Source of the DNA: a phage
Strand: one strand, 5' to 3'
Sequence record: PQ821741.1
Length of the DNA: 40,867 bases
In this document: one piece after another, positions 1,369-40,867 of the stretch
Numbering within the stretch: position 1 is the first letter of the stretch
Layout of the letters: the number at the start of each line of letters is the position of its first letter
Notes under the pieces: model-generated
What the model was told of the DNA's origin: nothing
Databases searched by the model: none
What the model saw: the letters and a program-made list of their open reading frames with translations, nothing else
Position numbers and translations under genes: made by a program

Positions 1369-1737
1369 ATGGCTATGTCAAACATGACTTACAACAACGT
1401 TTTCGACCACGCTTACGAAATGCTGAAAGAAAACATCCGTTATGATGACATCCGCGACACTGATGACCTGCACGATGCTGTTCATATGGCTGCCGATAGC
1501 GCCGTTCCGCACTATTACAGTGACGTTTTCAGCGTAATGGCGAGCGAGGGCATTGACCTTGAGTTCGAAGACTCTGGCCTGATGCCGGACACCAAGGACG
1601 TAATCCGTATCCTGCAAGCTCGCATCTATGAGCAACTCACGATTGACCTCTGGGAAGACGCTGAGGACTTGCTGAACGAGTACCTTGAGGAAGTCGAAGA
1701 AGAGGAAGAGGAAGACTACGCAGAGGATGAAGAGTAA
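1369..1737 (+). CDS. 0.3: Ocr, DNA-mimic anti-restriction protein (gene 0.3)
   Basis: 122 aa, acidic C-terminus, N-terminus [27 protein letters not shown] as in T7 Ocr. Confidence 0.93.
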
Positions 1738-1877
1738 TGGTTAAATACGGTCTAACAAGAGAAATGCTCCAAACGTACCGCGTGGCTATGGCTTATGGTG
1801 CTTCTTTCGGGTACTGTATGGCACAATTAGCACAGACATACCGAGCACGTAAGGCGATGTACGGTAATAGTAAGTGA
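1737..1877 (+). CDS. 0.4: Gene 0.4-like small early protein (46 aa)
   Basis: ATG overlaps 0.3 stop (TAATG); [12 protein letters not shown]... resembles T7 gp0.4. Confidence 0.6.
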   Translation: MVKYGLTREMLQTYRVAMAYGASFGYCMAQLAQTYRARKAMYGNSK

Positions 1878-1925
1878 TAGGCTCAAGGTCGCTCCATGCG
1901 AGTGGCCTTTATGATTATCATTTAA
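1878..1925 (+). promoter_or_regulatory. RNase III hairpin (ggtcgct...gagtggccttt atgattat motif)
   Basis: T7-type RNase III site motif; second copy at 2288-2335 inside the duplication. Confidence 0.55.
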
Positions 1926-1991
1926 CATGCAATAGGACTAACACCATGAGTAATCTTCTGGTCACCTCCTAGGTCTAGGTGTATGCGCTCT

Positions 1992-2147
1992 ATGCCGGAC
2001 ACCAAGGACGTAATCCGTATCCTGCAAGCTCGCATCTATGAGCAACTCACGATTGACCTCTGGGAAGACGCTGAGGACTTGCTGAACGAGTACCTTGAGG
2101 AAGTCGAAGAAGAGGAAGAGGAAGACTACGCAGAGGATGAAGAGTAA
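1992..2147 (+). pseudogene. Ocr C-terminal fragment ORF created by the duplication (51 aa from internal Met)
   Basis: Identical to 3' 156 nt of gene 0.3; no convincing RBS. Confidence 0.4.
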
Positions 2148-2287
2148 TGGTTAAATACGGTCTAACAAGAGAAATGCTCCAAACGTACCGCGTGGCTATG
2201 GCTTATGGTGCTTCTTTCGGGTACTGTATGGCACAATTAGCACAGACATACCGAGCACGTAAGGCGATGTACGGTAATAGTAAGTGA
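2147..2287 (+). CDS. 0.4: Second identical copy of gene 0.4-like ORF
   Basis: Exact copy of 1737-1877 within the duplicated unit. Confidence 0.5.
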   Translation: MVKYGLTREMLQTYRVAMAYGASFGYCMAQLAQTYRARKAMYGNSK

Positions 2288-2355
2288 TAGGCTCAAGGTC
2301 GCTCCATGCGAGTGGCCTTTATGATTATCATTTAACATGCAATAGGACTAACACC

Positions 2356-2556
2356 ATGAGTAAACTTCTGGCAACCTCCAAAATCCAAGGCCAATGCACT
2401 GTAACGCTGCGTGAGTACTATCACGGGTCAATGGGATGCACCTATGTTGTGCGCTATGGCAAACAGGTCACACATTGGGTAAACCTGATTTTAGCGCAAG
2501 AGGAGTATCAAGCCTGTGTGATACACCAAGCAACATGTGCAGGTTGGAACGATTGA
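2356..2556 (+). CDS. Hypothetical early protein (66 aa)
   Basis: ATG after RNase III site; ORF MSKLLATSKIQGQC...; no T7 counterpart recognised. Confidence 0.5.
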   Translation: MSKLLATSKIQGQCTVTLREYYHGSMGCTYVVRYGKQVTHWVNLILAQEEYQACVIHQATCAGWND

Positions 2557-7362: not shown

Positions 7363-7800
7363 ATGAGAATACATTTTGACATTATGAGTCCATCCTTTCT
7401 CTCATGGGACAATGGTCGCCCAGTAGGAGCCTCTATTCGTAATGGCTATAAGAGGGTTAGATGTGGTGGTAAATGGTTAAATCATCACGTCCTAATCTGG
7501 GAACATTTTAACGGCCCAATCCCTGAGGGAATGGAGATAGACCACATTGACCGTAACAGAGGTAATAACGCACCAAGTAACCTGCGTCTTGTGACTCGCT
7601 CTCAAAATAGCAGAAACAAGTCTACACATAAGAACAACAAGTCTGGAATAAAGGGAGTGTACTGGCACAAACATAGAGAATACTGGTATGGTCAGTGTAA
7701 GAAAAATGGTCAAACATTCAGAACATCCTGCTGCCACACAAAGGAACAGGCGGCTTTACTACTTACTAAACTTAGAGAGGAAATAGGTTATGCAGATTAA
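7363..7800 (+). CDS. HNH homing endonuclease (HNH nuclease motif plus AP2-like DNA-binding region)
   Basis: HHVLIWEHFNGPIPEGMEIDHIDRNRGNNAPSNLRLVTRSQNSRN and GIKGVYWHKHREYWYGQ motifs; overlaps ligase start by 11 nt; not in T7 at this locus. Confidence 0.8.
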   Translation: MRIHFDIMSPSFLSWDNGRPVGASIRNGYKRVRCGGKWLNHHVLIWEHFNGPIPEGMEIDHIDRNRGNNAPSNLRLVTRSQNSRNKSTHKNNKSGIKGVYWHKHREYWYGQCKKNGQTFRTSCCHTKEQAALLLTKLREEIGYAD

Positions 7801-8863
7801 AACAATGCCATTTAAAGCTGTGTCTTTCGTAGAGTCTGCCATTAAGAAAGCTCTGGACAACGCTGGGTATCTTATAGCCGACATCAAGTACGATGGTGTA
7901 CGCGGGAACATCTGCGTAGACAATACCGCTAACAGTTGCTGGCTCTCTCGTGTATCAAAAACGATTCCGGCGCTTTCTTACCTTAATGGGTTCGATACAC
8001 GTTGGCAGCGTCTACTAAAGGATGACCGTTGCTTCTACCCTGATGGCTTCATGCTGGATTGCGAACTTATGGTCAAGGGAGTGGACTTCAATACTGGCTC
8101 CGGCCTTCTGCGGACCAAGTGGCTCAACAAGAAGAACATGCAATTCGATATTGGCGGCCCATATGAATCGTGGGACGCGAGCATGAAGGGACTTCCTTTC
8201 GGCCTTGACCCGAACTTACTAACAGTCAAGCTGTACGCCATCCTTCCGCTGCACATCGTGGAGTCTGGAGAAGACTGTGACGTTATGACGTTGCTAATGC
8301 AGGAACACGTTAAGAACATGCTGCCTCTGCTACAGGAATACTTCCCTGAAATCGAATGGCAAGCGGCTGAGTCTTACGAGGTCTACGACATGGTTGAACT
8401 ACAGCAACTGTACGAGAAGAAGCGTGAAGAAGGTCATGAGGGTCTCATTGTGAAAGACCCGATGTGTATCTATAAGCGCGGCAAGAAGTCCGGCTGGTGG
8501 AAGATGAAGCCAGAGAATGAGGCCGATGGTGTCGTTGTGGGACTCAACTGGGGAACTCCCGGTCTTGCCAACGAGGGAAAGGTGATTGGCTTCGAGGTTC
8601 TCCTTGAGTCTGGTCGAGTGGTATCCGCCAACAACATCTCTCAGGCACTTATGGAGGAGTTCACTAAGACTGTAGCTGAGGCAAGCGGTTACACACTAAC
8701 AGGTGGACCCGTAGTAATTCAAGATGGTCAACCAAAGGTCAACCCTTACGAGGGCTGGGCGTGCCAGATTAGCTACATGGAGGAAACCCCAGACGGCTCT
8801 CTGCGTCACCCATCGTTCGTAATGTTCCGTGGCACCGAGGACAACCCTCAAGAGAAAATGTAA
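7790..8863 (+). CDS. 1.3: ATP-dependent DNA ligase
   Basis: 357 aa; KYDGVRG adenylation motif; C-terminus ...DGSLRHPSFVMFRGTEDNPQEKM as T7 ligase. Confidence 0.95.
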   Translation: MQIKTMPFKAVSFVESAIKKALDNAGYLIADIKYDGVRGNICVDNTANSCWLSRVSKTIPALSYLNGFDTRWQRLLKDDRCFYPDGFMLDCELMVKGVDFNTGSGLLRTKWLNKKNMQFDIGGPYESWDASMKGLPFGLDPNLLTVKLYAILPLHIVESGEDCDVMTLLMQEHVKNMLPLLQEYFPEIEWQAAESYEVYDMVELQQLYEKKREEGHEGLIVKDPMCIYKRGKKSGWWKMKPENEADGVVVGLNWGTPGLANEGKVIGFEVLLESGRVVSANNISQALMEEFTKTVAEASGYTLTGGPVVIQDGQPKVNPYEGWACQISYMEETPDGSLRHPSFVMFRGTEDNPQEKM

Positions 8864-8865
8864 AC

Positions 8866-8900
8866 ACACTGGCTCACCTTAGGGTGGGCCTTTCTGCGTT
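8866..8900 (+). terminator. Early terminator TE (rho-independent)
   Basis: ggctcacc-ttag-ggtgggcc hairpin followed by tttctgcgttt. Confidence 0.85.
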
Positions 8901-8923
8901 TAATACGACTCACTAAAGGAGGT
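8901..8923 (+). promoter_or_regulatory. T7 promoter phi1.5
   Basis: taatacgactcactaaaggaggt. Confidence 0.85.
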
Positions 8924-8930
8924 ACACACC

Positions 8931-9077
8931 ATGATGTACTTAATACCATTATTCATCCCTTACGAGGGCTGGGCGTGCCAGATTAGCTACATGGAGGAAA
9001 CCCCAGACGGCTCTCTGCGTCACCCATCGTTCGTAATGTTCCGTGGCACCGAGGACAACCCTCAAGAGAAAATGTAA
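8931..9077 (+). pseudogene. Chimeric ORF from the duplication: 9 N-terminal codons of the small gene fused in frame to the last 39 codons of ligase
   Basis: MMYLIPLFI + PYEGWACQISYMEETPDGSLRHPSFVMFRGTEDNPQEKM; has the native RBS ggagg. Confidence 0.6.
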
Positions 9078-9079
9078 AC

Positions 9080-9114
9080 ACACTGGCTCACCTTAGGGTG
9101 GGCCTTTCTGCGTT
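9080..9114 (+). terminator. Second copy of TE terminator (in duplication)
   Basis: Identical to 8866-8900. Confidence 0.8.
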
Positions 9115-9137
9115 TAATACGACTCACTAAAGGAGGT
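9115..9137 (+). promoter_or_regulatory. Second copy of phi1.5 promoter (in duplication)
   Basis: Identical to 8901-8923. Confidence 0.8.
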
Positions 9138-9144
9138 ACACACC

Positions 9145-9234
9145 ATGATGTACTTAATACCATTATTCATCGTCATCCTAGGATGCCTTGCGCTCACCTG
9201 TAGCGACGACGATATGCCAGATGGTCACGCTTAA
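9145..9234 (+). CDS. Small protein, gene 1.4/1.5-like (29 aa)
   Basis: MMYLIPLFIVILGCLALTCSDDDMPDGHA; RBS aggagg. Confidence 0.7.
   Translation: MMYLIPLFIVILGCLALTCSDDDMPDGHA

Positions 9235-10043: not shown

Positions 10044-10056
<13 letters not shown>
9520..10056 (+). CDS. 1.7: Gene 1.7 nucleotide kinase
   Basis: 178 aa; TGATG overlap with 1.6; matches T7 gp1.7. Confidence 0.85.
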
Positions 10057-10561
<505 letters not shown>

Positions 10562-15120: not shown

Positions 15121-17352
15121 ATGATCGTTTCTGACATCGAAGCTAACGCCCTCTTAGAGAGCGTCACTAAGTTCCACTGCGGGGTTATCTACGACTACTC
15201 TACCGCTGAGTACGTAAGCTACCGTCCGAGTGACTTCGGTGCGTATCTGGATGCGCTGGAAGCCGAGGTTGCACGAGGCGGTCTTATTGTGTTCCACAAC
15301 GGTCACAAGTATGACGTTCCTGCATTGACAAAACTGGCAAAGCTGCAATTGAACCGAGAGTTCCACATTCCTCGTGAGAACTGTATCGACACCCTTGTGC
15401 TGTCACGCTTGATTCACTCTAACCTCAAGGACACCGACATGGGTCTTCTGCGTTCCGGTAAACTTCCGGGTAAACGCTTTGGGTCTCACGCTTTGGAGGC
15501 GTGGGGTTATCGCTTAGGCGAGATGAAGGGTGAATACAAGGACGACTTTAAGCGTATGCTTGAAGAGCAGGGTGAAGAATACGTTGACGGAATGGAGTGG
15601 TGGAACTTCAACGAAGAGATGATGGCCTATAACGTTCAGGACGTTGTGGTCACTAAGGCTCTCCTTGAGAAATTACTGTCAGACAAGCACTATTTCCCTT
15701 TAGGTTTAGAGCACGTTAATTATGATTCTATAATCTTTTGGAAAGACTCTATCGAAGCTATTGATGTTGAACATAGAGCAGCTTGGTTGTTAGCTAAACA
15801 GGAGCGTAATGGTTTCCCATTTGACGCTAAGGCAATCGAGGAGTTGTACGTAGAGTTAGCTGCTCGCCGCTCTGAGTTGCTCCGCAAATTGACCGAAACG
15901 TTCGGCTCATGGTATCAGCCCAAAGGTGGCACCGAAATGTTCTGCCATCCGAGGACTGGTAAGCCACTGCCCAAATACCCTCGCATTAAGACACCTAAAG
16001 TTGGTGGTATCTTTAAGAAGCCTAAGAACAAGGCACAGCGAGAAGGCCGTGAGCCTTGCGAACTGGATACCCGCGAGTACGTTGCTGGTGCCCCTTACAC
16101 CCCAGTTGAGCATGTAGTGTTTAACCCATCGTCTCGTGACCACATCCAGAAGAAACTCCAAGAGGCTGGATGGGTCCCAACCAAGTACACCGATAAGGGT
16201 GCGCCTGTGGTGGACGATGAGGTACTCGAAGGAGTACGTGTAGATGACCCTGAGAAGCAAGCTGCAATCGACCTCATTAAAGAATACTTGATGATTCAGA
16301 AGCGAATCGGACAGTCTGCTGAGGGAGACAAGGCGTGGCTTCGTTACGTTGCCGATGATGGTAAGATTCACGGCTCTGTAAACCCTAACGGGGCAGTTAC
16401 TGGTCGCGCTACCCATGCTTTCCCCAACCTTGCGCAAATTCCGGGTGTGCGTTCACCTTATGGAGAGCAGTGTCGCGCTGCTTTTGGTGCTGAACATCAC
16501 CTAGACGGTATTACTGGTAAGCCTTGGGTTCAGGCGGGTATCGACGCATCCGGTCTGGAACTACGCTGCTTGGCCCACTTCATGGCTCGCTTTGATAACG
16601 GCGAGTACGCTCACGAGATTCTTAATGGAGACATCCACACTAAGAACCAGATGGCTGCCGACGCATCCGGTCTGGAACTACGCTGCTTGGCCCACTTCAT
16701 GGCTCGCTTTGATAACGGCGAGTACGCTCACGAGATTCTTAATGGAGACATCCACACTAAGAACCAGATGGCTGCCGAATTGCCTACCCGTGATAACGCC
16801 AAGACGTTCATCTATGGGTTCCTCTACGGTGCTGGCGATGAGAAGATTGGGCAGATTGTCGGTGCTGGTAAAGAGCGTGGTAAGGAACTCAAGAAGAAAT
16901 TCCTTGAGAACACCCCTGCGATTGCGGCACTCCGAGAGTCTATCCAACAGACACTTGTTGAGTCCTCTCAGTGGGTAGCTGGCGAACAGCGAGTCAAGTG
17001 GAAACGCCGCTGGATTAAAGGTCTGGATGGTCGCAAGGTACACGTTCGTAGTCCTCACGCTGCCCTGAATACCCTACTGCAATCCGCTGGTGCGCTCATC
17101 TGCAAACTGTGGATTATCAAGACCGAAGAGATGCTCGTAGAGAAAGGCTTGAAGCATGGCTGGGATGGGGACTTTGCGTACATGGCGTGGGTCCACGATG
17201 AAATCCAAGTGGGTTGTCGTACCGAAGAGATTGCTCAGGTGGTCATTGAGACAGCACAAGAAGCGATGCGCTGGGTTGGAGACCACTGGAACTTCCGGTG
17301 TCTTCTGGATACAGAAGGTAAGATGGGTCCTAATTGGGCCGTATGTCACTAA
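15121..17352 (+). CDS. 5: DNA polymerase (family A), carrying an internal 39-aa in-frame tandem duplication
   Basis: 743 aa against 704 in T7; otherwise near-identical to T7 gp5. Confidence 0.95.
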   Translation: MIVSDIEANALLESVTKFHCGVIYDYSTAEYVSYRPSDFGAYLDALEAEVARGGLIVFHNGHKYDVPALTKLAKLQLNREFHIPRENCIDTLVLSRLIHSNLKDTDMGLLRSGKLPGKRFGSHALEAWGYRLGEMKGEYKDDFKRMLEEQGEEYVDGMEWWNFNEEMMAYNVQDVVVTKALLEKLLSDKHYFPLGLEHVNYDSIIFWKDSIEAIDVEHRAAWLLAKQERNGFPFDAKAIEELYVELAARRSELLRKLTETFGSWYQPKGGTEMFCHPRTGKPLPKYPRIKTPKVGGIFKKPKNKAQREGREPCELDTREYVAGAPYTPVEHVVFNPSSRDHIQKKLQEAGWVPTKYTDKGAPVVDDEVLEGVRVDDPEKQAAIDLIKEYLMIQKRIGQSAEGDKAWLRYVADDGKIHGSVNPNGAVTGRATHAFPNLAQIPGVRSPYGEQCRAAFGAEHHLDGITGKPWVQAGIDASGLELRCLAHFMARFDNGEYAHEILNGDIHTKNQMAADASGLELRCLAHFMARFDNGEYAHEILNGDIHTKNQMAAELPTRDNAKTFIYGFLYGAGDEKIGQIVGAGKERGKELKKKFLENTPAIAALRESIQQTLVESSQWVAGEQRVKWKRRWIKGLDGRKVHVRSPHAALNTLLQSAGALICKLWIIKTEEMLVEKGLKHGWDGDFAYMAWVHDEIQVGCRTEEIAQVVIETAQEAMRWVGDHWNFRCLLDTEGKMGPNWAVCH
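16542..16775 (+). repeat. Exact in-frame tandem duplication, 117-bp unit (16542-16658 and 16659-16775)
   Basis: 120 nt identity at offset 117 with cga microhomology; encodes DASGLELRCLAHFMARFDNGEYAHEILNGDIHTKNQMAA twice. Confidence 0.95.
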
Positions 17353-17814
17353 TTCTAAAGGAGAAATTATTATGGCTATGACCAAGAAATTTAAAGTGTC
17401 CTTCGATGTTACCGCTAAGATGCCATCTGACGTTCAGGCAATCTTAGAGAAAGACATGCTACACCTGTGTAAGCAGGTTGGCTCCGGTGCTATCGTGCCA
17501 GATGGTAAACAGAAGGAAATGATTGTACAGTTCCTGACATATGGTTGGAGACCACTGGAACTTCCGGTGTCTTCTGGATACAGAAGGTAAGATGGGTCCT
17601 AATTGGGCCGTATGTCACTAATTCTAAAGGAGAAATTATTATGGCTATGACCAAGAAATTTAAAGTGTCCTTCGATGTTACCGCTAAGATGCCATCTGAC
17701 GTTCAGGCAATCTTAGAGAAAGACATGCTACACCTGTGTAAGCAGGTTGGCTCCGGTGCTATCGTGCCAGATGGTAAACAGAAGGAAATGATTGTACAGT
17801 TCCTGACATATGGT
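17277..17814 (+). repeat. Exact tandem duplication, 269-bp unit (17277-17545 and 17546-17814)
   Basis: 272 nt identity at offset 269 with ggt microhomology; spans gene 5 3' end, intergenic RBS and 5' 56 codons of gene 5.5. Confidence 0.95.
17372..17590 (+). pseudogene. Truncated gene 5.5 copy fused out of frame to a duplicated gene 5 tail (72 aa)
   Basis: First 56 codons identical to gene 5.5, then frame-shifted tail WRPLELPVSSGYRR*. Confidence 0.7.
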
Positions 17815-17940
17815 ATGGAAGGTGTGATGACGTTCGTAGTGCGTACAGCGTTTCGTGAGGCCATCAAGGACATGCACGAAGAGTATGCCGATAAGGACTC
17901 CTTCAAACTATCTCCTGCAACAGTACGGGAGGTGTTCTAA
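17641..17940 (+). CDS. 5.5: Gp5.5 (H-NS-binding protein)
   Basis: 99 aa MAMTKKFKVSFDVTAKM...SPATVREVF. Confidence 0.9.
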   Translation: MAMTKKFKVSFDVTAKMPSDVQAILEKDMLHLCKQVGSGAIVPDGKQKEMIVQFLTYGMEGVMTFVVRTAFREAIKDMHEEYADKDSFKLSPATVREVF

Positions 17941-18149: not shown

Positions 18150-18307
18150 TGGTTCGTGATACTGTAACAATTACTCGTGATGCATGGAACGATATGCAGG
18201 GCTACATCGACTCTCTGGAACGTGAGAACGATAGCCTTAAGAATCAACTTATGGAAGCTGACGAATACATAGTTGAGCTAGAGGAGAAACTTAATGGCAC
18301 TTCTTGA
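18149..18307 (+). CDS. 5.9: Gp5.9 (RecBCD inhibitor)
   Basis: 52 aa MVRDTVTITRDAWNDMQGYIDSLERENDSLKNQLMEADEY... Confidence 0.85.
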   Translation: MVRDTVTITRDAWNDMQGYIDSLERENDSLKNQLMEADEYIVELEEKLNGTS

Positions 18308-19196
18308 CCTTAAACAATTCTATGAGTTACGCGAGGGCTGTGACGACAAAGGAATCCTTGTGATGGATGGTGACTGGCTGGTATTCCAAGCTATGAGTGC
18401 TGCTGAGTTTGACGCCTCATGGGAGGAAGAGATTTGGCACCGCTGCTGTGACCACGCTAAGGCGCGTAAGATTCTTGAGGATTCCATCAAGTCCTACGAG
18501 ACCCGCAAGAAGGCTTGGATAGGCGCTCCGATTGTCCTTGCGTTCACCGATAGCGTTAACTGGCGTAAAGAACTGGTTGACCCGAACTACAAGGCTAACC
18601 GTAAGGCAACTAAGAAACCTGTAGGTTACTTTGAGTTCCTTGATGCACTATTTGAGCGAGAAGAGTTCTACTGCATCCGTGAGCCTATGCTTGAGGGTGA
18701 TGACGTTATGGGAGTTATTGCTTCCAATCCGTCTGCATTCGGTGCTCGTAAGGCTGTAATCATCTCGTGTGATAAGGACTTTAAGACCATCCCCAACTGC
18801 GACTTCCTATGGTGTACCACTGGTAACATCCTGACTCAGACCGAAGAGTCCGCTGACTGGTGGCACCTCTTCCAGACCATCAAGGGTGACATTACCGATG
18901 GTTACTCAGGGATTGCCGGATGGGGCGATACAGCCGAGGACTTCTTGAATAACCCGTTCATAACCGAGCCTAAAACGTCTGTGCTTAAGTCTGGAAAGAA
19001 CAAAGGCCAAGAGGTCACCAAGTGGGTTAAGCGCGCCCCTGAGCCTCATGAGACACTTTGGGACTGCATTAAGTCCATCGGTGCTAAGGCTGGCATGACC
19101 GAAGAGGATGTTATTAAGCAGGGCCAGATGGCTCGAATCTTGCGGTTCAATGAGTACAACTTTATTGACAAGGAGATTTACCTGTGGAGACCATAG
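18294..19196 (+). CDS. 6: 5'-3' exonuclease gp6
   Basis: 300 aa, same length as T7 gp6; MALLDLKQFYELREGCDDKGILVMDGDWLVF... Confidence 0.95.
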   Translation: MALLDLKQFYELREGCDDKGILVMDGDWLVFQAMSAAEFDASWEEEIWHRCCDHAKARKILEDSIKSYETRKKAWIGAPIVLAFTDSVNWRKELVDPNYKANRKATKKPVGYFEFLDALFEREEFYCIREPMLEGDDVMGVIASNPSAFGARKAVIISCDKDFKTIPNCDFLWCTTGNILTQTEESADWWHLFQTIKGDITDGYSGIAGWGDTAEDFLNNPFITEPKTSVLKSGKNKGQEVTKWVKRAPEPHETLWDCIKSIGAKAGMTEEDVIKQGQMARILRFNEYNFIDKEIYLWRP

Positions 19197-35052: not shown

Positions 35053-35736
35053 ATGGCTAACGTAATTAAAACAGTTTTGACTTACCCGTTAGATGGCTCC
35101 ACTCGTGATTTTAATATCCCGTTTGAGTATCTAGCCCGTAAGTTCGTAGTGGTAACTCTTATTGGTGTAGACCGCAAGGTCCTTACGATTAATACAGACT
35201 ACCGTTTTGCTACTCGCACTACCATCTCATTAACCAAGGCTTGGGGTCCAGCGGATGGATATACTACCATCGAGTTGCGCCGAGTAACCTCAACTACCGA
35301 CCGATTGGTTGACTTTACAGATGGTTCAATCCTCCGTGCATATGACCTTAACGTGGCTCAGATTCAGACTATGCATGTGGCAGAAGAGGCACGTGACTTA
35401 ACTGCGGATACAATCGGTGTCAATAGTGACGGTCACTTGGATGCCCGTGGTCGTCGAATTGTGAACCTAGCGAACGCTGTAGATGATTATGATGCCATCA
35501 ACCTACGTCAGGTTAAGCTGTGGAACAATAGTGCGTATCAATCAGCCGTGAACGCGAAGACCTCTGAGACGAACGCTAAGACCTCTGAGACAAACGCCTT
35601 AACATACCGCAATTCTGCTGCTGCTAGTGCCACCGCTGCAAGCACTTCTGAGACGAACGCGAAGACCTCTGAGACGAACGCGAAGACCTCTGAGACGAAC
35701 GCGAAGACCTCTGAGATTACTGCGAAGTTCCTATAA
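35053..35736 (+). pseudogene. 17: Tail fibre gene 17, N-terminal part, ending at premature TAA
   Basis: MANVIKTVLTY...FNIPFEYLARKFVVVTLIGVDRKVLT... matches T7/T3 gp17 N-terminus; frame ends ...TSEITAKFL* at 35734-36. Confidence 0.85.
35556..35723 (+). repeat. 21-bp tandem repeats encoding the heptad TSETNAK (2 units, 42-bp spacer, 4 units)
   Basis: gaagacctctgagacgaacgc repeated; two adjacent units are nucleotide-identical. Confidence 0.85.
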
Positions 35737-35868
35737 GGATGCTGCTGCTTCAAGTGCCACTGCTTCTGCTGCTAGTGCAGCTACCTGTAAGGCAGTTGCT
35801 ATAAGGATGCTGCTGCTTCAAGTGCCACTGCTTCTGCTGCTAGTGCAGCTACCTCTAAGGCAGAGGCC
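35733..35868 (+). repeat. Imperfect 68-bp tandem repeat inside gene 17 (35733-35800 and 35801-35868)
   Basis: First ~55 nt identical, 3' ends differ; copy 1 is +1 relative to the gene frame and carries TAA/TAG/TAA stops. Confidence 0.85.
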
Positions 35869-36489
35869 GACCGCGCGGAGCTACGTGCAAACCAAGCAGG
35901 TGGAGCTAGGGTTATAAACGGAATCTATCCAGATTCTAGTGGAAGCGTAACACTCACTACTGATGACATCAAAGACCCATCTGGTGTTACCATAATGATG
36001 GCTGTTCGATCTATGATTGACGCTATCTTTCCTGTCGGTATTCGCATGGATTGGCCTCTCGCTTCCCTTCCCGATAATCCAACACTTGGTGTTAAGTTTC
36101 TTAGGTTGGATGGGTCTAGCTTTGATAAAACACAGTACCCCAAGCTGGCTGCCATATATCCGTCTGGAGTTTTGCCAGATTTACGTGGTGAGTTTATTCG
36201 TGGCTGGGATGACGGGCGCGGGGTTGATGGTGGGCGCGTTGTTTTAACTGGTCAGAGCCAATCAGTACAGCAGCATACTCATGGTCTAGCGATGGCATAC
36301 AGTTCAGAGAGCGGTTACAAGGACAAGCTAGGCGCTGGCCCTAACTCTGACATGATTCCGATTAAAGATATGATTAAAGTAACCACTTTTACTGGTTCTG
36401 GTGAGTATTACTTAAAGGCGAATGATTCAACAGGTGTTGAAACTCGCCCGCGCAACGTCGCATTTAACTTCATCGTGAGGGCCGCATAA
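35803..36489 (+). pseudogene. 17: Tail fibre gene 17, C-terminal part with tip 1 (in frame with N-terminal part but separated by stops)
   Basis: KDAAASSATASAASAATSKAEADRAE...GEFIRGWDDGRGVDGGR...TRPRNVAFNFIVRAA*; no own start or RBS. Confidence 0.8.
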
Positions 36490-36841
36490 TGACACAGGCA
36501 AAATTAAACAGTGAATTTATTGCCACAGTAGCGGGTGATATGAAGATTCTAGTGGAAGCGTAACACTCACTACTGATGACATCAAAGACCCATCTGGTGT
36601 TACCATAATGATGGCTGTTCGATCTATGATTGACGCTATCTTTCCTGTCGGTATTCGCATGGATTGGCCTCTCGCTTCCCTTCCCGATAATCCAACACTT
36701 GGTGTTAAGTTTCTTAGGTTGGATGGGTCTAGCTTTGATAAAACACAGTACCCCAAGCTGGCTGCCATATATCCGTCTGGAGTTTTGCCAGATTTACGTG
36801 GTGAGTTTATTCGTGGCTGGGATGACGGGCGCGGGGTTGAT
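35931..36841 (+). repeat. 298-bp exact direct repeat (35931-36228 and 36544-36841), period 613 bp
   Basis: Base-by-base identical; both copies encode ...DSSGSVTLTTDDIKDPSGVTIMMAVRSMIDAIFPVGIRMDW...GEFIRGWDDGRGVD. Confidence 0.95.
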
Positions 36842-37123
36842 AGAGGGCGCGGATTAATGAGTGCTCAGGGCGATGCCATTCGGAATATTACTGGTCGCAT
36901 TAGGGGCGGGTCATCTGGGTCTTATGGTAAAATCTTCCTGGATGAATCTAGTGGTGCTTTTTTCCCTTCCGGTGAGGATGGAGAACAGTTCCATCCTTCA
37001 TCGACACCTCTACCTTATGGGAGATACAACACTGTAGATTTTGATGCTAGCAGGGTAGTCCCAACTGCCGACGAAAACCGCCCAAGAAACGTTGCGTGGA
37101 ATATGATTGTGAGGGCATCGTAA
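36539..37123 (+). other. Promoterless, startless second tail-fibre C-terminal cassette (tip 2)
   Basis: Reading frame opens after TGA at 36536-38; shared 298-bp stem then divergent tip ...NRPRNVAWNMIVRAS*; no RBS; first ATG is the internal Met-Met at 36608. Confidence 0.75.
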
Positions 37124-40354: not shown

Positions 40355-40418
40355 GGTCTTCCTGACCGACTGATGGCTCACCGAGGGATTCAGCGGTATG
40401 ATTGCATCACACCACTTC

Positions 40419-40867
40419 ATCCCTATAGAGTCAAGTCCTAAGGTATACCCATAAAGAGCCTCTAATGGTCTATCCTAAGGTATATACCTAAAGATAGGCC
40501 ATCCTATCAGTGTCACCTAAAGAGGGTCTTAGAGATGGCCTAGGGAGTTCCTAGAGGGTCCTTTAAAATATACCATAAAAATCTGAGTGACTATCTCACA
40601 GTGTACGGACCTAAAGTTCCCCCATAGGGGTACCTAAAGCCCAGCCAATCACCTAAAGTCAACCTTCGGTTGACCTTGAGGGTCCCTAAGGGTTAGGGTT
40701 GACCCTTTGAGTGGGCCTTGGGTGTTACCTTGAGTGTCTCTCTGTGTCCCTATCTGTTACAGCCTCCTAAAGTATCCTCCTAAAGTATCCTCCTAAAGTC
40801 ACCTCCTAAAGTCATTCCTACCGTCTACAACCTAAAGACTACACCTAAAGACCCATCAAGTCAACGC
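40419..40867. repeat. Right copy of 449-bp direct repeat (wrap-around into the genome left end)
   Basis: Identical to 32-480 except one mismatch. Confidence 0.95.
40594..40751 (+). repeat. T7-type terminal repeat, right copy
   Basis: Identical to 207-364. Confidence 0.8.

Follow-up and report, generated by a model that had tools for sequence, protein, structure and literature searches.

The phage genome PQ821741.1 carries, across the junction between gene 5, which encodes the DNA polymerase, and gene 5.5, an exact head-to-tail repeat of 269 bp, which we attribute, with a probability of roughly 0.55, to a very recent microhomology-mediated tandem duplication. The window, that is the whole stretch of DNA that was analysed (40,867 nt), corresponds to an entire T7-like genome. 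Gene 5 terminates normally in the first copy, gene 5.5 is complete in the second one, and the sole new coding product of the duplication is an ORF of 72 aa. The duplication would most plausibly be a passenger, either neutral or of slight cost. Taken alone the finding is minor: the mutation is structural and of a textbook type, it leaves both genes intact, and the small ORF that it adds is probably inert.

Structure of the repeat

The two copies of the 269-bp unit are 100% identical, with zero intervening sequence (Table 1), and the TRF program run on the window returned a period of 269, 2.0 copies and a score of 1083. The exact-match run (17274-17545 = 17543-17814) is 272 nt long, which corresponds to the period of 269 plus a 3-nt GGT microhomology, this triplet being found at all three boundaries (17274-17276, 17543-17545 and 17812-17814). 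An exact repeat of 272 nt cannot arise by chance within 40.9 kb. The novel junction reads CATATGGT up to position 17545 and TGGAGACC from position 17546. Copy 1 is composed of the last 25 codons of gene 5 and its stop, an intergenic spacer of 19 nt bearing the RBS, and the initial 57 codons of gene 5.5. An earlier note on this DNA had described a tandem duplication with ggt microhomology across gene 5 and gene 5.5, and the 272-nt run with its period of 269 confirms it, as well as the 25 codons of gene 5, to which the stop has to be added. Its count of 56 codons for gene 5.5 was too low, the unit containing 57 full codons plus the shared GGT (Gly58), and the chimera keeps 58 native residues; its start at 17277 is equivalent to ours, as any position in 17274-17277 can serve as the boundary. 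Within the unit, neither T7 promoters nor terminators were detected by the promoter/terminator search, and no inverted repeats were found that would confer a regulatory function on it or account for the position of the switch.

Table 1 Features of the gene 5/gene 5.5 region and the other duplications of the genome.
Feature	Coordinates	Strand	Remarks
Gene 5, DNA polymerase, 743 aa	15121..17352	+	native C-terminus kept
Copy 1 of the 269-bp unit	17274..17542	+	gene 5 tail, spacer and gene 5.5 start
Shine-Dalgarno AAGGAG of the chimeric ORF	17358..17363	+	8 nt upstream of ATG 17372
Chimeric ORF, 72 aa	17372..17590	+	8.1 kDa, pI 9.5
Copy 2 of the 269-bp unit	17543..17811	+	100% identical to copy 1
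Orphan second gene 5 tail (VGDHWNFRCLLDTEGKMGPNWAVCH, then stop)	17544..17621	+	no own initiation site in copy 2
Second Shine-Dalgarno AAGGAG, for intact gene 5.5	17627..17632	+	
Intact gene 5.5, 99 aa, H-NS-binding protein family PF11247	17641..17940	+	
Third GGT, right microhomology arm	17812..17814	+	
Period-410 duplication: gene 0.3 (ocr) 3' end, 46-aa gene, start of the next gene	1582..2379	+	
214-bp tandem duplication	8743..9171	+	1-nt microhomology
163-bp tandem duplication: gene 1.7 end, most of gene 1.8 and its stop	10044..10372	+	
117-bp in-frame tandem duplication within gene 5	16542..16778	+	CGA microhomology
Imperfect 68-nt duplication plus 1 extra nt within gene 17	35725..35861	+	2 mismatches

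The gene 5 product ends in NWAVCH, like that of T7, and this native terminus lies within copy 1, where the earlier note had also placed the normal end of the gene. The product of the intact gene 5.5 matched positions 1-99 of the 99 of the PF11247 profile (E = 1.8e-64), shared 94% identity with T7 gp5.5 and exhibited every position conserved in gp5.5, which bears out its assignment as the full gene; the identical protein is encoded on 11 other public contigs, all of single-copy architecture. The ATG codons at 17372 and 17641 lie in the same context, identical over 98 nt upstream (AAGGAG included) and 171 nt downstream, and both copies have thus kept the same translation signals, as had been proposed. 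No independent product is predicted from the orphan gene 5 tail.

The chimeric ORF

The first copy of gene 5.5 enters the polymerase tail out of frame, a reading that the translation of the ORF confirmed. The chimera consists of residues 1-58 of gp5.5 followed by 14 residues, WRPLELPVSSGYRR, derived from the duplicated gene 5 tail; its C-terminal end reads LTYGWRPLELPVSSGYRR and its diagnostic peptide is EMIVQFLTYGWRPLELPVSSGYR. It covers positions 1-62 of the 99 of PF11247 and is devoid of G61, F65, R72 and residues 91-98. In the gp5.5 family, residues T4, T14, G58 and R72 are invariant and the C-terminal motif SPATVREV (with the end SPATVREVF), absent from the chimera, is conserved. The proteins are 96-102 aa long in 57/57 family clusters, with no natural short form among them. 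The AF2 model of gp5.5 (pLDDT 83) exhibited two helices, 19-37 and 45-82, and according to this model the break at residue 58 would fall in the middle of helix 2, with helix 1 kept. A sequence search of the PDB gave no solved relative of gp5.5, only chance matches with legumain.

Since its initiation region is identical to that of gene 5.5 and it would be carried by the same class II transcripts, the chimera would probably be translated. It seems unlikely, from its sequence and from the model, that it is a working gp5.5 fragment, because the cut falls in the predicted helix 45-82, R72 and SPATVREVF are lost and all the family clusters are 96-102 aa long, and it is most likely an inert, unstable and functionless by-product. 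The proposal that a truncated N-terminal fragment could be made beside full-length gp5.5 holds for the ORF and its identical RBS, and a working fragment is unlikely.

Single-copy state in the relatives

The gene 5/5.5 region is in single copy in 14/14 relatives compared (T7, an engineered T7, IME390, PHB20, EFA-2, ESh6, PDP351P2, 3A_8767 and six Logan/ENA contigs). Most of them have CTGGGT followed by TGGAGACC and GGT followed by ATGGAAGG, with a spacing of 269 nt unless an extra gene lies in between, and in three of them the right arm is GGC, not GGT. This comparison of sequences shows the single copy as the ancestral state. The genome of the window is 4-8% diverged from every relative and, as the two copies are 100% identical in such a diverged genome, the duplication is recent. 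The 34-nt junction gave zero matches in viral_contigs, genome_contigs and metagenome_contigs, and exact-protein look-ups found no record of the chimera, of the 743-aa gp5 or of gp6. That no independent sequence carries the junction counts against the preferred reading. No duplications were found in oversized T7 records (LR745708), the extra length of which corresponds to engineered insertions.

Other duplications and sequence quality

The 269-bp event does not stand alone. The genome contains at least six long near-perfect duplications, this one included; five of them are clean (410, 214, 163, 117 and 269 bp), and two further messy duplications were found in gene 17. With several duplications, the question moves from the biology of gene 5.5 to genome-wide duplication or assembly quality. 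The 117-bp duplication repeats 39 aa of gp5, D475-A513 in T7 numbering, motif A included, and the extra copy sits at the 513/514 loop, where EFA-2 has a natural insertion of +14 aa. The microhomology of the 163-bp duplication is ATG, at the start of gene 2, and the 214-bp unit runs from the 3' end of the ligase gene through a TE-like hairpin and the phi1.5 promoter into gene 1.5, of which it includes the first 9 codons. In the period-410 duplication, the end of copy 1 exhibits 3 substitutions and an orphan filler of 22 nt (1970-1991), no source of which was found in the window or in the phage collection.

The four clean junctions that were scored showed microhomology of 3, 3, 3 and 1 nt, with a chance probability of 5e-4 of having 3 nt or more in at least three of four; the summed microhomology is 10 nt for a chance mean of 2.7 nt (P = 0.003 for 10 or more). 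Taken alone, the GGT of the gene 5/5.5 junction has a probability of 0.05 (3 nt or more). A gene end is spanned by 4/4 of the duplications with a length that is not a multiple of 3, leaving an intact copy of each gene, which under random placement has a probability of 0.014-0.019, and the sole intragenic clean duplication (117 bp) is in frame. This gene sparing, together with the above-chance microhomology, argues that the clean duplications were real molecules filtered by viability.

Against this, a 69-nt insert carrying stop codons breaks gene 17 as written. The stop codons are brought by the 68-nt event, and the deletion of positions 35725-35793 restores a tail fibre of 455 aa. The closest relatives of gene 17, searched at the DNA level, by tblastn and in a large protein search, reach only about 50-79% protein identity and the ancestral state is not recoverable from them; the single-copy 34-mer of gene 17 gave no match in viral_contigs. 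At its start, the contig shows 37 nt inverted in place; in T7, IME390 and EFA-2 this segment is 100% conserved. The comparison with the relatives revealed no further in-place inversion, and the two ends of the contig share an overlap of ~476 nt. As gene 17 is broken, the sequence is not a faithful copy of one viable clone and, with the contig-end artefacts added, the assembly is not trustworthy as one clonal genome.

Origin of the duplications

Such defects could indicate that overlapping contigs or fragments were joined end to end, their overlaps being left unmerged, and that no such molecule exists. A single mechanism would then produce the overlaps of 410, 214, 163, 117, 269 and 68 bp together with the ~476-bp overlap of the ends. 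The mismatched end of the 410-bp copy 1 with its orphan 22 nt resembles a poor contig end, and the 68-nt repeat with 2 mismatches and an extra base, the inverted contig start, the non-functional gene 17 and the absence of the junctions from every relative and public contig searched point in the same direction. However, arbitrary ends predict microhomology at the chance mean, not the 10 nt observed, and they would be intragenic 50-78% of the time, whereas all four out-of-frame events span gene ends (P about 0.015). Moreover, the in-frame duplication falls at a naturally permissive loop, and joins on an overlap of 1-3 nt are impossible for graph and overlap assemblers. We hold a construction artefact to be rather unlikely.

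A real duplication could also have been kept by selection, for a restored packaged length, for an altered translation of gene 5.5, or for an N-terminal fragment modulating H-NS/tRNA binding. With the duplications, a backbone of ~38.7 kb gains about 1.2-1.9 kb and reaches about 40.4 kb, near the 39.9 kb of T7; every clean event spares gene function, and the chimera, with a full-strength RBS, keeps 58 native residues, among them helix 1. We give this little credence, since relatives that lack such additions are viable at 38.2-39.4 kb and the unit, with just 25 codons of gene 5 and 57 of gene 5.5, contains no complete gene twice; it is therefore not a dosage-type gene duplication and, no complete gene 5.5 copy being added, brings no dosage gain. 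The fragment has neither the invariant R72 nor the conserved C-terminus and has no short counterpart in the 57 clusters, and the identity of the copies gives no sign of long retention.

That the sequence is non-natural, the T7-like genome having been simulated, generated by a model or altered in silico by structural variants, with the repeats as copy-back artefacts, appears very improbable. The many exact local repeats, the in-place inversion, the orphan filler and the broken gene 17 in a genome whose remaining genes are intact would fit this origin, as would gp5 and gp6 not being exactly on record in a very large collection. Yet the substitution pattern is natural (98.6% protein identity with T7 for gp1 and 99.1% for gp19, for about 92% DNA identity), 11 natural contigs encode a protein identical to the gp5.5 of the window, each of the 16 T7 promoters lies where it would be expected, and neither the gene-sparing placement nor the permissive-loop position is expected from random edits. 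Both the unrolling of a strain-mixture bubble and an unequal crossover between different parental phages were rejected, the two copies being identical.

We favour a very recent microhomology-mediated tandem duplication, for which we infer a template switch. During replication or recombination-dependent repair of the T7-like genome, a nascent 3' end stopping at GGT (codon 58 of gene 5.5) would re-anneal to the GGT located 269 nt upstream, at codons 718/719 of gene 5, and the interval would then be copied a second time from this upstream GGT. No gene is lost, because the unit is made of a gene end, an intergenic RBS and a gene start. The 269-bp event belongs to a burst of five or more events of this type.

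Recombination between the 269-bp copies would readily delete the duplication. In T7 genetics (Studier; Masker and colleagues), direct repeats of such length reportedly recombine out at high frequency. The persistence of several unselected tandem repeats in T7 is not expected, which counts against the preferred reading; our literature search on tandem duplications and direct-repeat instability in T7 found nothing T7-specific. That a single lytic phage of 40 kb should recently have acquired six or seven long duplications would be extraordinary, and this also counts against that reading, no comparable long duplication being found in ~366 kb of relatives.

If all the duplications are real in one clone, the genome would be an unusual natural case, in a compact lytic phage, of tandem duplications that arise in bursts and are filtered by selection; it would also hint at a replisome variant promoting template switching. 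The practical value of the 269-bp finding is that of a quality flag for the genome, the annotation and biology of which need read checking first; this includes the polymerase of 743 aa, both copies of gene 1.8, the phi1.5 promoter, which is duplicated, and the two tips of the tail fibre.

Comparison with known systems

Microhomology-mediated tandem duplications (MTDs) are the dominant class of tandem duplications and are frequent subclonally in deeply sequenced viruses (bioRxiv 10.64898/2026.02.28.708716). The present case is similar by its exact head-to-tail copy, by an ancestral single copy flanked by GGT and, 269 nt further, GGT, and by a junction microhomology that is above chance in the genome. 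It differs by arms of 1-3 nt, units of 117-410 bp and several events in one 40-kb genome. A duplication-prone replisome in the phage lineage might give bursts of MTDs, which we regard as a long shot. The candidates would be the 39-aa duplication of gp5 (D475-A513, next to motif A) and the unique changes Q59K and V76I in the FEN-family gene 6 exonuclease, the latter because of the analogy with the rise of MTDs in rad27/FEN1 mutants. If this were true, purifying selection would keep only duplications spanning gene ends, yielding RBS-equipped chimeric ORFs as raw material for gene birth in a lytic phage.

The 269-bp unit also spans the exact point (17353/17355) at which relatives have an extra gene: T7 has gene 5.3 there, L007 and L008 have HNH genes and L003 an ORF of 75 aa. 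PDP351P2 has about 601 extra nt within gene 5 at point 17196, 78 nt from the unit. The window is empty at both insertion points and may therefore be a cleavage target in mixed infections; that the repair of such a cleavage caused the 269-bp duplication is a conjecture.

T7 gp5.5 binds the central oligomerisation domain of H-NS and forms an H-NS/tRNA complex (PMC8501957). The intact gene 5.5 encodes a full-length member of this family (PF11247), unlike the chimeric ORF, which, with a partial match and a foreign tail of 14 residues, is no functional member. The chimera resembles the product of T7 gene 5.5-5.7 (annotated as possible gene 5.5-5.7, V01146) in being a second protein that shares the gene 5.5 N-terminus; in T7, recoding extends the full gp5.5 into gp5.7, whereas here a DNA rearrangement truncates it at residue 58.

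Tandem duplication at the gene 5/gene 5.5 junction

Direct comparison showed that nucleotides 17274-17542 and 17543-17811 are identical copies, for which Tandem Repeats Finder gave 2.0 copies of period 269 with a score of 1083. The exact-match run found by direct scan at this period is 272 nt, 3 nt beyond the unit, so the unit is extended by a 3-nt microhomology, GGT, present at 17274-76, 17543-45 and 17812-14. The exact 269-bp duplication with ggt microhomology described in the earlier note is thus confirmed. The gene 5 ORF (15121-17352), coding for the DNA polymerase gp5, does end normally, with the C-terminus ...NWAVCH as in T7 gp5. As that note had also seen, the first copy of gene 5.5 runs out of frame into the polymerase tail: a 72-codon ORF from ATG 17372 to the stop at 17590 codes for gp5.5 residues 1-58 followed by WRPLELPVSSGYRR, which is the duplicated tail read in a different frame. 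The intact gene 5.5 lies at 17641-17940; its product has 94% identity to T7 gp5.5 and spans the full PF11247 (Pfam) profile with an E-value of 1.8e-64. Upstream of the two 5.5 ATG codons 98 nt are identical, including the AAGGAG sequence 8 nt before the ATG, so both copies keep the RBS as had been proposed, and 171 nt are identical downstream. The duplicated part of gene 5.5, given before as 56 codons, has to be corrected to 57 full codons plus the common Gly58 codon.

The locus is single copy in every relative examined. A comparison over 3 kb gave 2,615 bp for the relatives against 3,001 bp for the window, whose additional 386 bp are the sum of this 269-bp unit and a 117-bp one within gene 5. 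The left-arm GGT is found in the relatives and the right-arm GGT in most of them, 269 nt apart unless an extra gene intervenes. On 11 other public contigs a gp5.5 identical to that of the window is encoded, and all 11 carry a 704-aa gene 5 and then a single gene 5.5. Sequence searches of viral, genome and metagenome contig collections did not retrieve the junction, and exact-protein look-up gave no record for the chimera or for the 743-aa gp5 of the window. Since the two copies are identical while the genome is 4-8% diverged from all relatives, the duplication must be very recent.

The 269-bp unit covers point 17353/17355, where an extra gene is found in T7 (gene 5.3) and in the relatives L003 (a 75-aa ORF), L007 and L008 (HNH genes), and lies 78 nt from 17196, where gene 5 of PDP351P2 contains an additional stretch of about 601 nt. 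Comparison with five relatives (L013, L002, L003, L007 and L008) showed that the window is empty at both 17196 and 17353-17355. We may conjecture that an endonuclease of a co-infecting relative could cut here and that an error-prone restart could then seed a duplication.

Predicted expression and properties of the chimera

The 269-bp unit was found to be free of promoters, terminators and notable inverted repeats. The two 5.5 starts share their class II transcripts and have identical initiation regions, so translation of the chimera should be about as efficient as that of gp5.5, a protein that binds tRNA and the oligomerisation domain of H-NS (PMC8501957). In the gp5.5 family, all 57 clusters are 96-102 aa long, with invariant residues T4, T14, G58 and R72 and a conserved SPATVREV at the C-terminus. 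A PDB sequence search gave no solved gp5.5 structure for comparison; an AlphaFold model built on the family alignment (pLDDT 83) exhibited a helix at 19-37 and a long helix at 45-82. The native part of the chimera stops at G58, with the loss of 24 residues of this modelled second helix, R72 and the C-terminus, and the foreign tail that it gains contains two prolines. Most likely the peptide is unstable and inert; that it binds H-NS in part or acts as a dominant negative is conceivable but unsupported.

Genome background and other duplications

The window is a complete T7-like genome, collinear from gene 0.3 to gene 19.5 by tblastn with T7 proteins, and its 16 T7-type promoters all lie where expected. 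The closest records (IME390, PHB20, EFA-2, T7 and Logan/ENA contigs) show about 92-96% DNA identity. T7 genes 1.4, 2.8, 5.3 and 7.7 have no counterpart in the window, and a homologue of T7 gp3.8 (HNH endonuclease-like, 50% identity) lies between genes 1.2 and 1.3, at 7486-7713, another position than that of the T7 gene. The genome under MT350293.1, a record named 'Enterococcus phage EFA-2', is collinear, T7-like and of the coliphage type, with about 92% identity to the window, and the Enterococcus host stated for it looks doubtful.

Tandem and spaced duplications in the window
Event	Coordinates	Period or spacing (nt)	Region	Microhomology or mismatch
Clean	1582-2379	410	gene 0.3 (ocr) 3' end, 46-aa gene, start of next gene	
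Clean	8743-9171	214	ligase 3' end, TE-like hairpin, phi1.5 promoter, 9 gene 1.5 codons	1 nt
Clean	10044-10372	163	gene 1.7 end, most of gene 1.8	ATG
Clean	16542-16778	117	within gene 5, in frame, exact	CGA
Clean (target)	17274-17814	269	gene 5/5.5 junction	GGT
Messy	35725-35861	68 plus one extra A	gene 17, stop codons in frame	2 mismatches
Messy	35931-36238 = 36544-36851	613 (308-nt repeat)	head of two alternative tail-fibre tip cassettes	

In about 366 kb from eight complete relatives plus fragments, we found no tandem duplication of period at least 40, the sole exception being a 13-nt array at the PHB20 genome end. In the 410-bp event, copy 2 agrees with the EFA-2 ancestral state, and the end of copy 1 carries three clustered substitutions and a 22-nt orphan filler (1970-1991) with no source in the window or the phage collection searched; an ATG within the filler opens a 54-aa ORF (1983-2147) that continues in frame into the duplicated Ocr tail. 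The 214-bp event doubles the phi1.5 promoter (8901 and 9115) and the TE-like terminator hairpin, and fuses 9 gene 1.5 codons in frame to the last 39 ligase residues (ORF 8931-9077). The 163-bp event leaves most of gene 1.8 repeated, without a start, directly before gene 2. In T7 numbering, the 117-bp event duplicates gp5 D475-A513, a stretch that holds the aspartate of motif A, and brings gp5 from 704 to 743 aa; the extra copy sits at loop 513/514, immediately ahead of the O-helix segment RDNAKTFIYGFLYG, a loop where the EFA-2 polymerase also has a natural net +14-aa insertion.

In the gene 17 region (35053-35920), the ORF is halted at 35736, and a clean protein of 455 aa is restored by deleting 35725-35793. 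In its present form the gene cannot yield a tail fibre, and the phage would be without a functional one. The tandem tip cassettes within 35931-37123 (ORFs 35995-36489 and 36608-37123) are both of collar-domain types, with 65-79% identity to E. coli prophage fibres. Recombination between the identical heads would replace tip 1 by tip 2 in frame, and the arrangement could represent a one-way host-range switch or the assembly of a mixed population.

The contig is a circular permutation, and over the concatemer junction and terminal repeat its two ends share about 476 nt: 38-480 equals 40425-40867 but for one mismatch, at position 54. Nucleotides 1-37 match 40384-40420 in reverse complement and are thus inverted in place; in its normal orientation this segment is 100% conserved in T7, IME390 and EFA-2. 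The inverted segment and overlapping ends are an assembly artefact at the contig end.

Origin of the duplications

The clean junctions are not random. Microhomology at the four tested is 3, 3, 3 and 1 nt; the chance probability of at least three of four junctions with at least 3 nt is 5e-4, and that of a total of at least 10 nt is 0.003. A tandem unit damages a gene only when it falls entirely inside it; with random placement on the gene maps of T7 or IME390, units of such lengths would do so in 51-78% of cases. Yet all four units with a length not divisible by 3 extend across a gene end (P = 0.014-0.019), and the sole intragenic clean unit, of 117 bp, has a length divisible by 3. Viability selection would leave such a gene-sparing, microhomology pattern, which argues for real, replicating molecules as the source of the clean junctions. 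On the other side, the gene 17 defect, the degraded 410-bp junction and the unmerged contig ends, one of them inverted, mean that the sequence is not a faithful image of a single viable clone. Two readings reconcile these observations: the duplications are real and some or all are subclonal variants threaded by the assembler into one path, or the five clean duplications are genuine and linked, with a separate mis-assembly of the tail-fibre region. A pure scaffold with unmerged overlaps would explain the overlap of the ends and the number of events by a single cause, but predicts neither the microhomology nor the gene-sparing placement, and is an unlikely source of the duplications.

The cluster of duplications in one genome is more notable than the target alone. 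It indicates a sequence-quality problem or, less likely, a duplication-prone replisome, for which the 39-aa gp5 duplication and the gp6 changes Q59K and V76I are candidates. These two changes in the gene 6 exonuclease (18294-19196) were unseen in eight relatives, and two gp5 substitutions, Y203S and T204I, were likewise unseen in the relatives compared.

Microhomology-mediated duplications are reported as abundant subclonal variants in deep-sequenced viral samples (bioRxiv 10.64898/2026.02.28.708716). The target is a microhomology-mediated tandem duplication, a known kind of mutation in a new place; it is probably functionless, and it is uncertain whether the consensus carries it.
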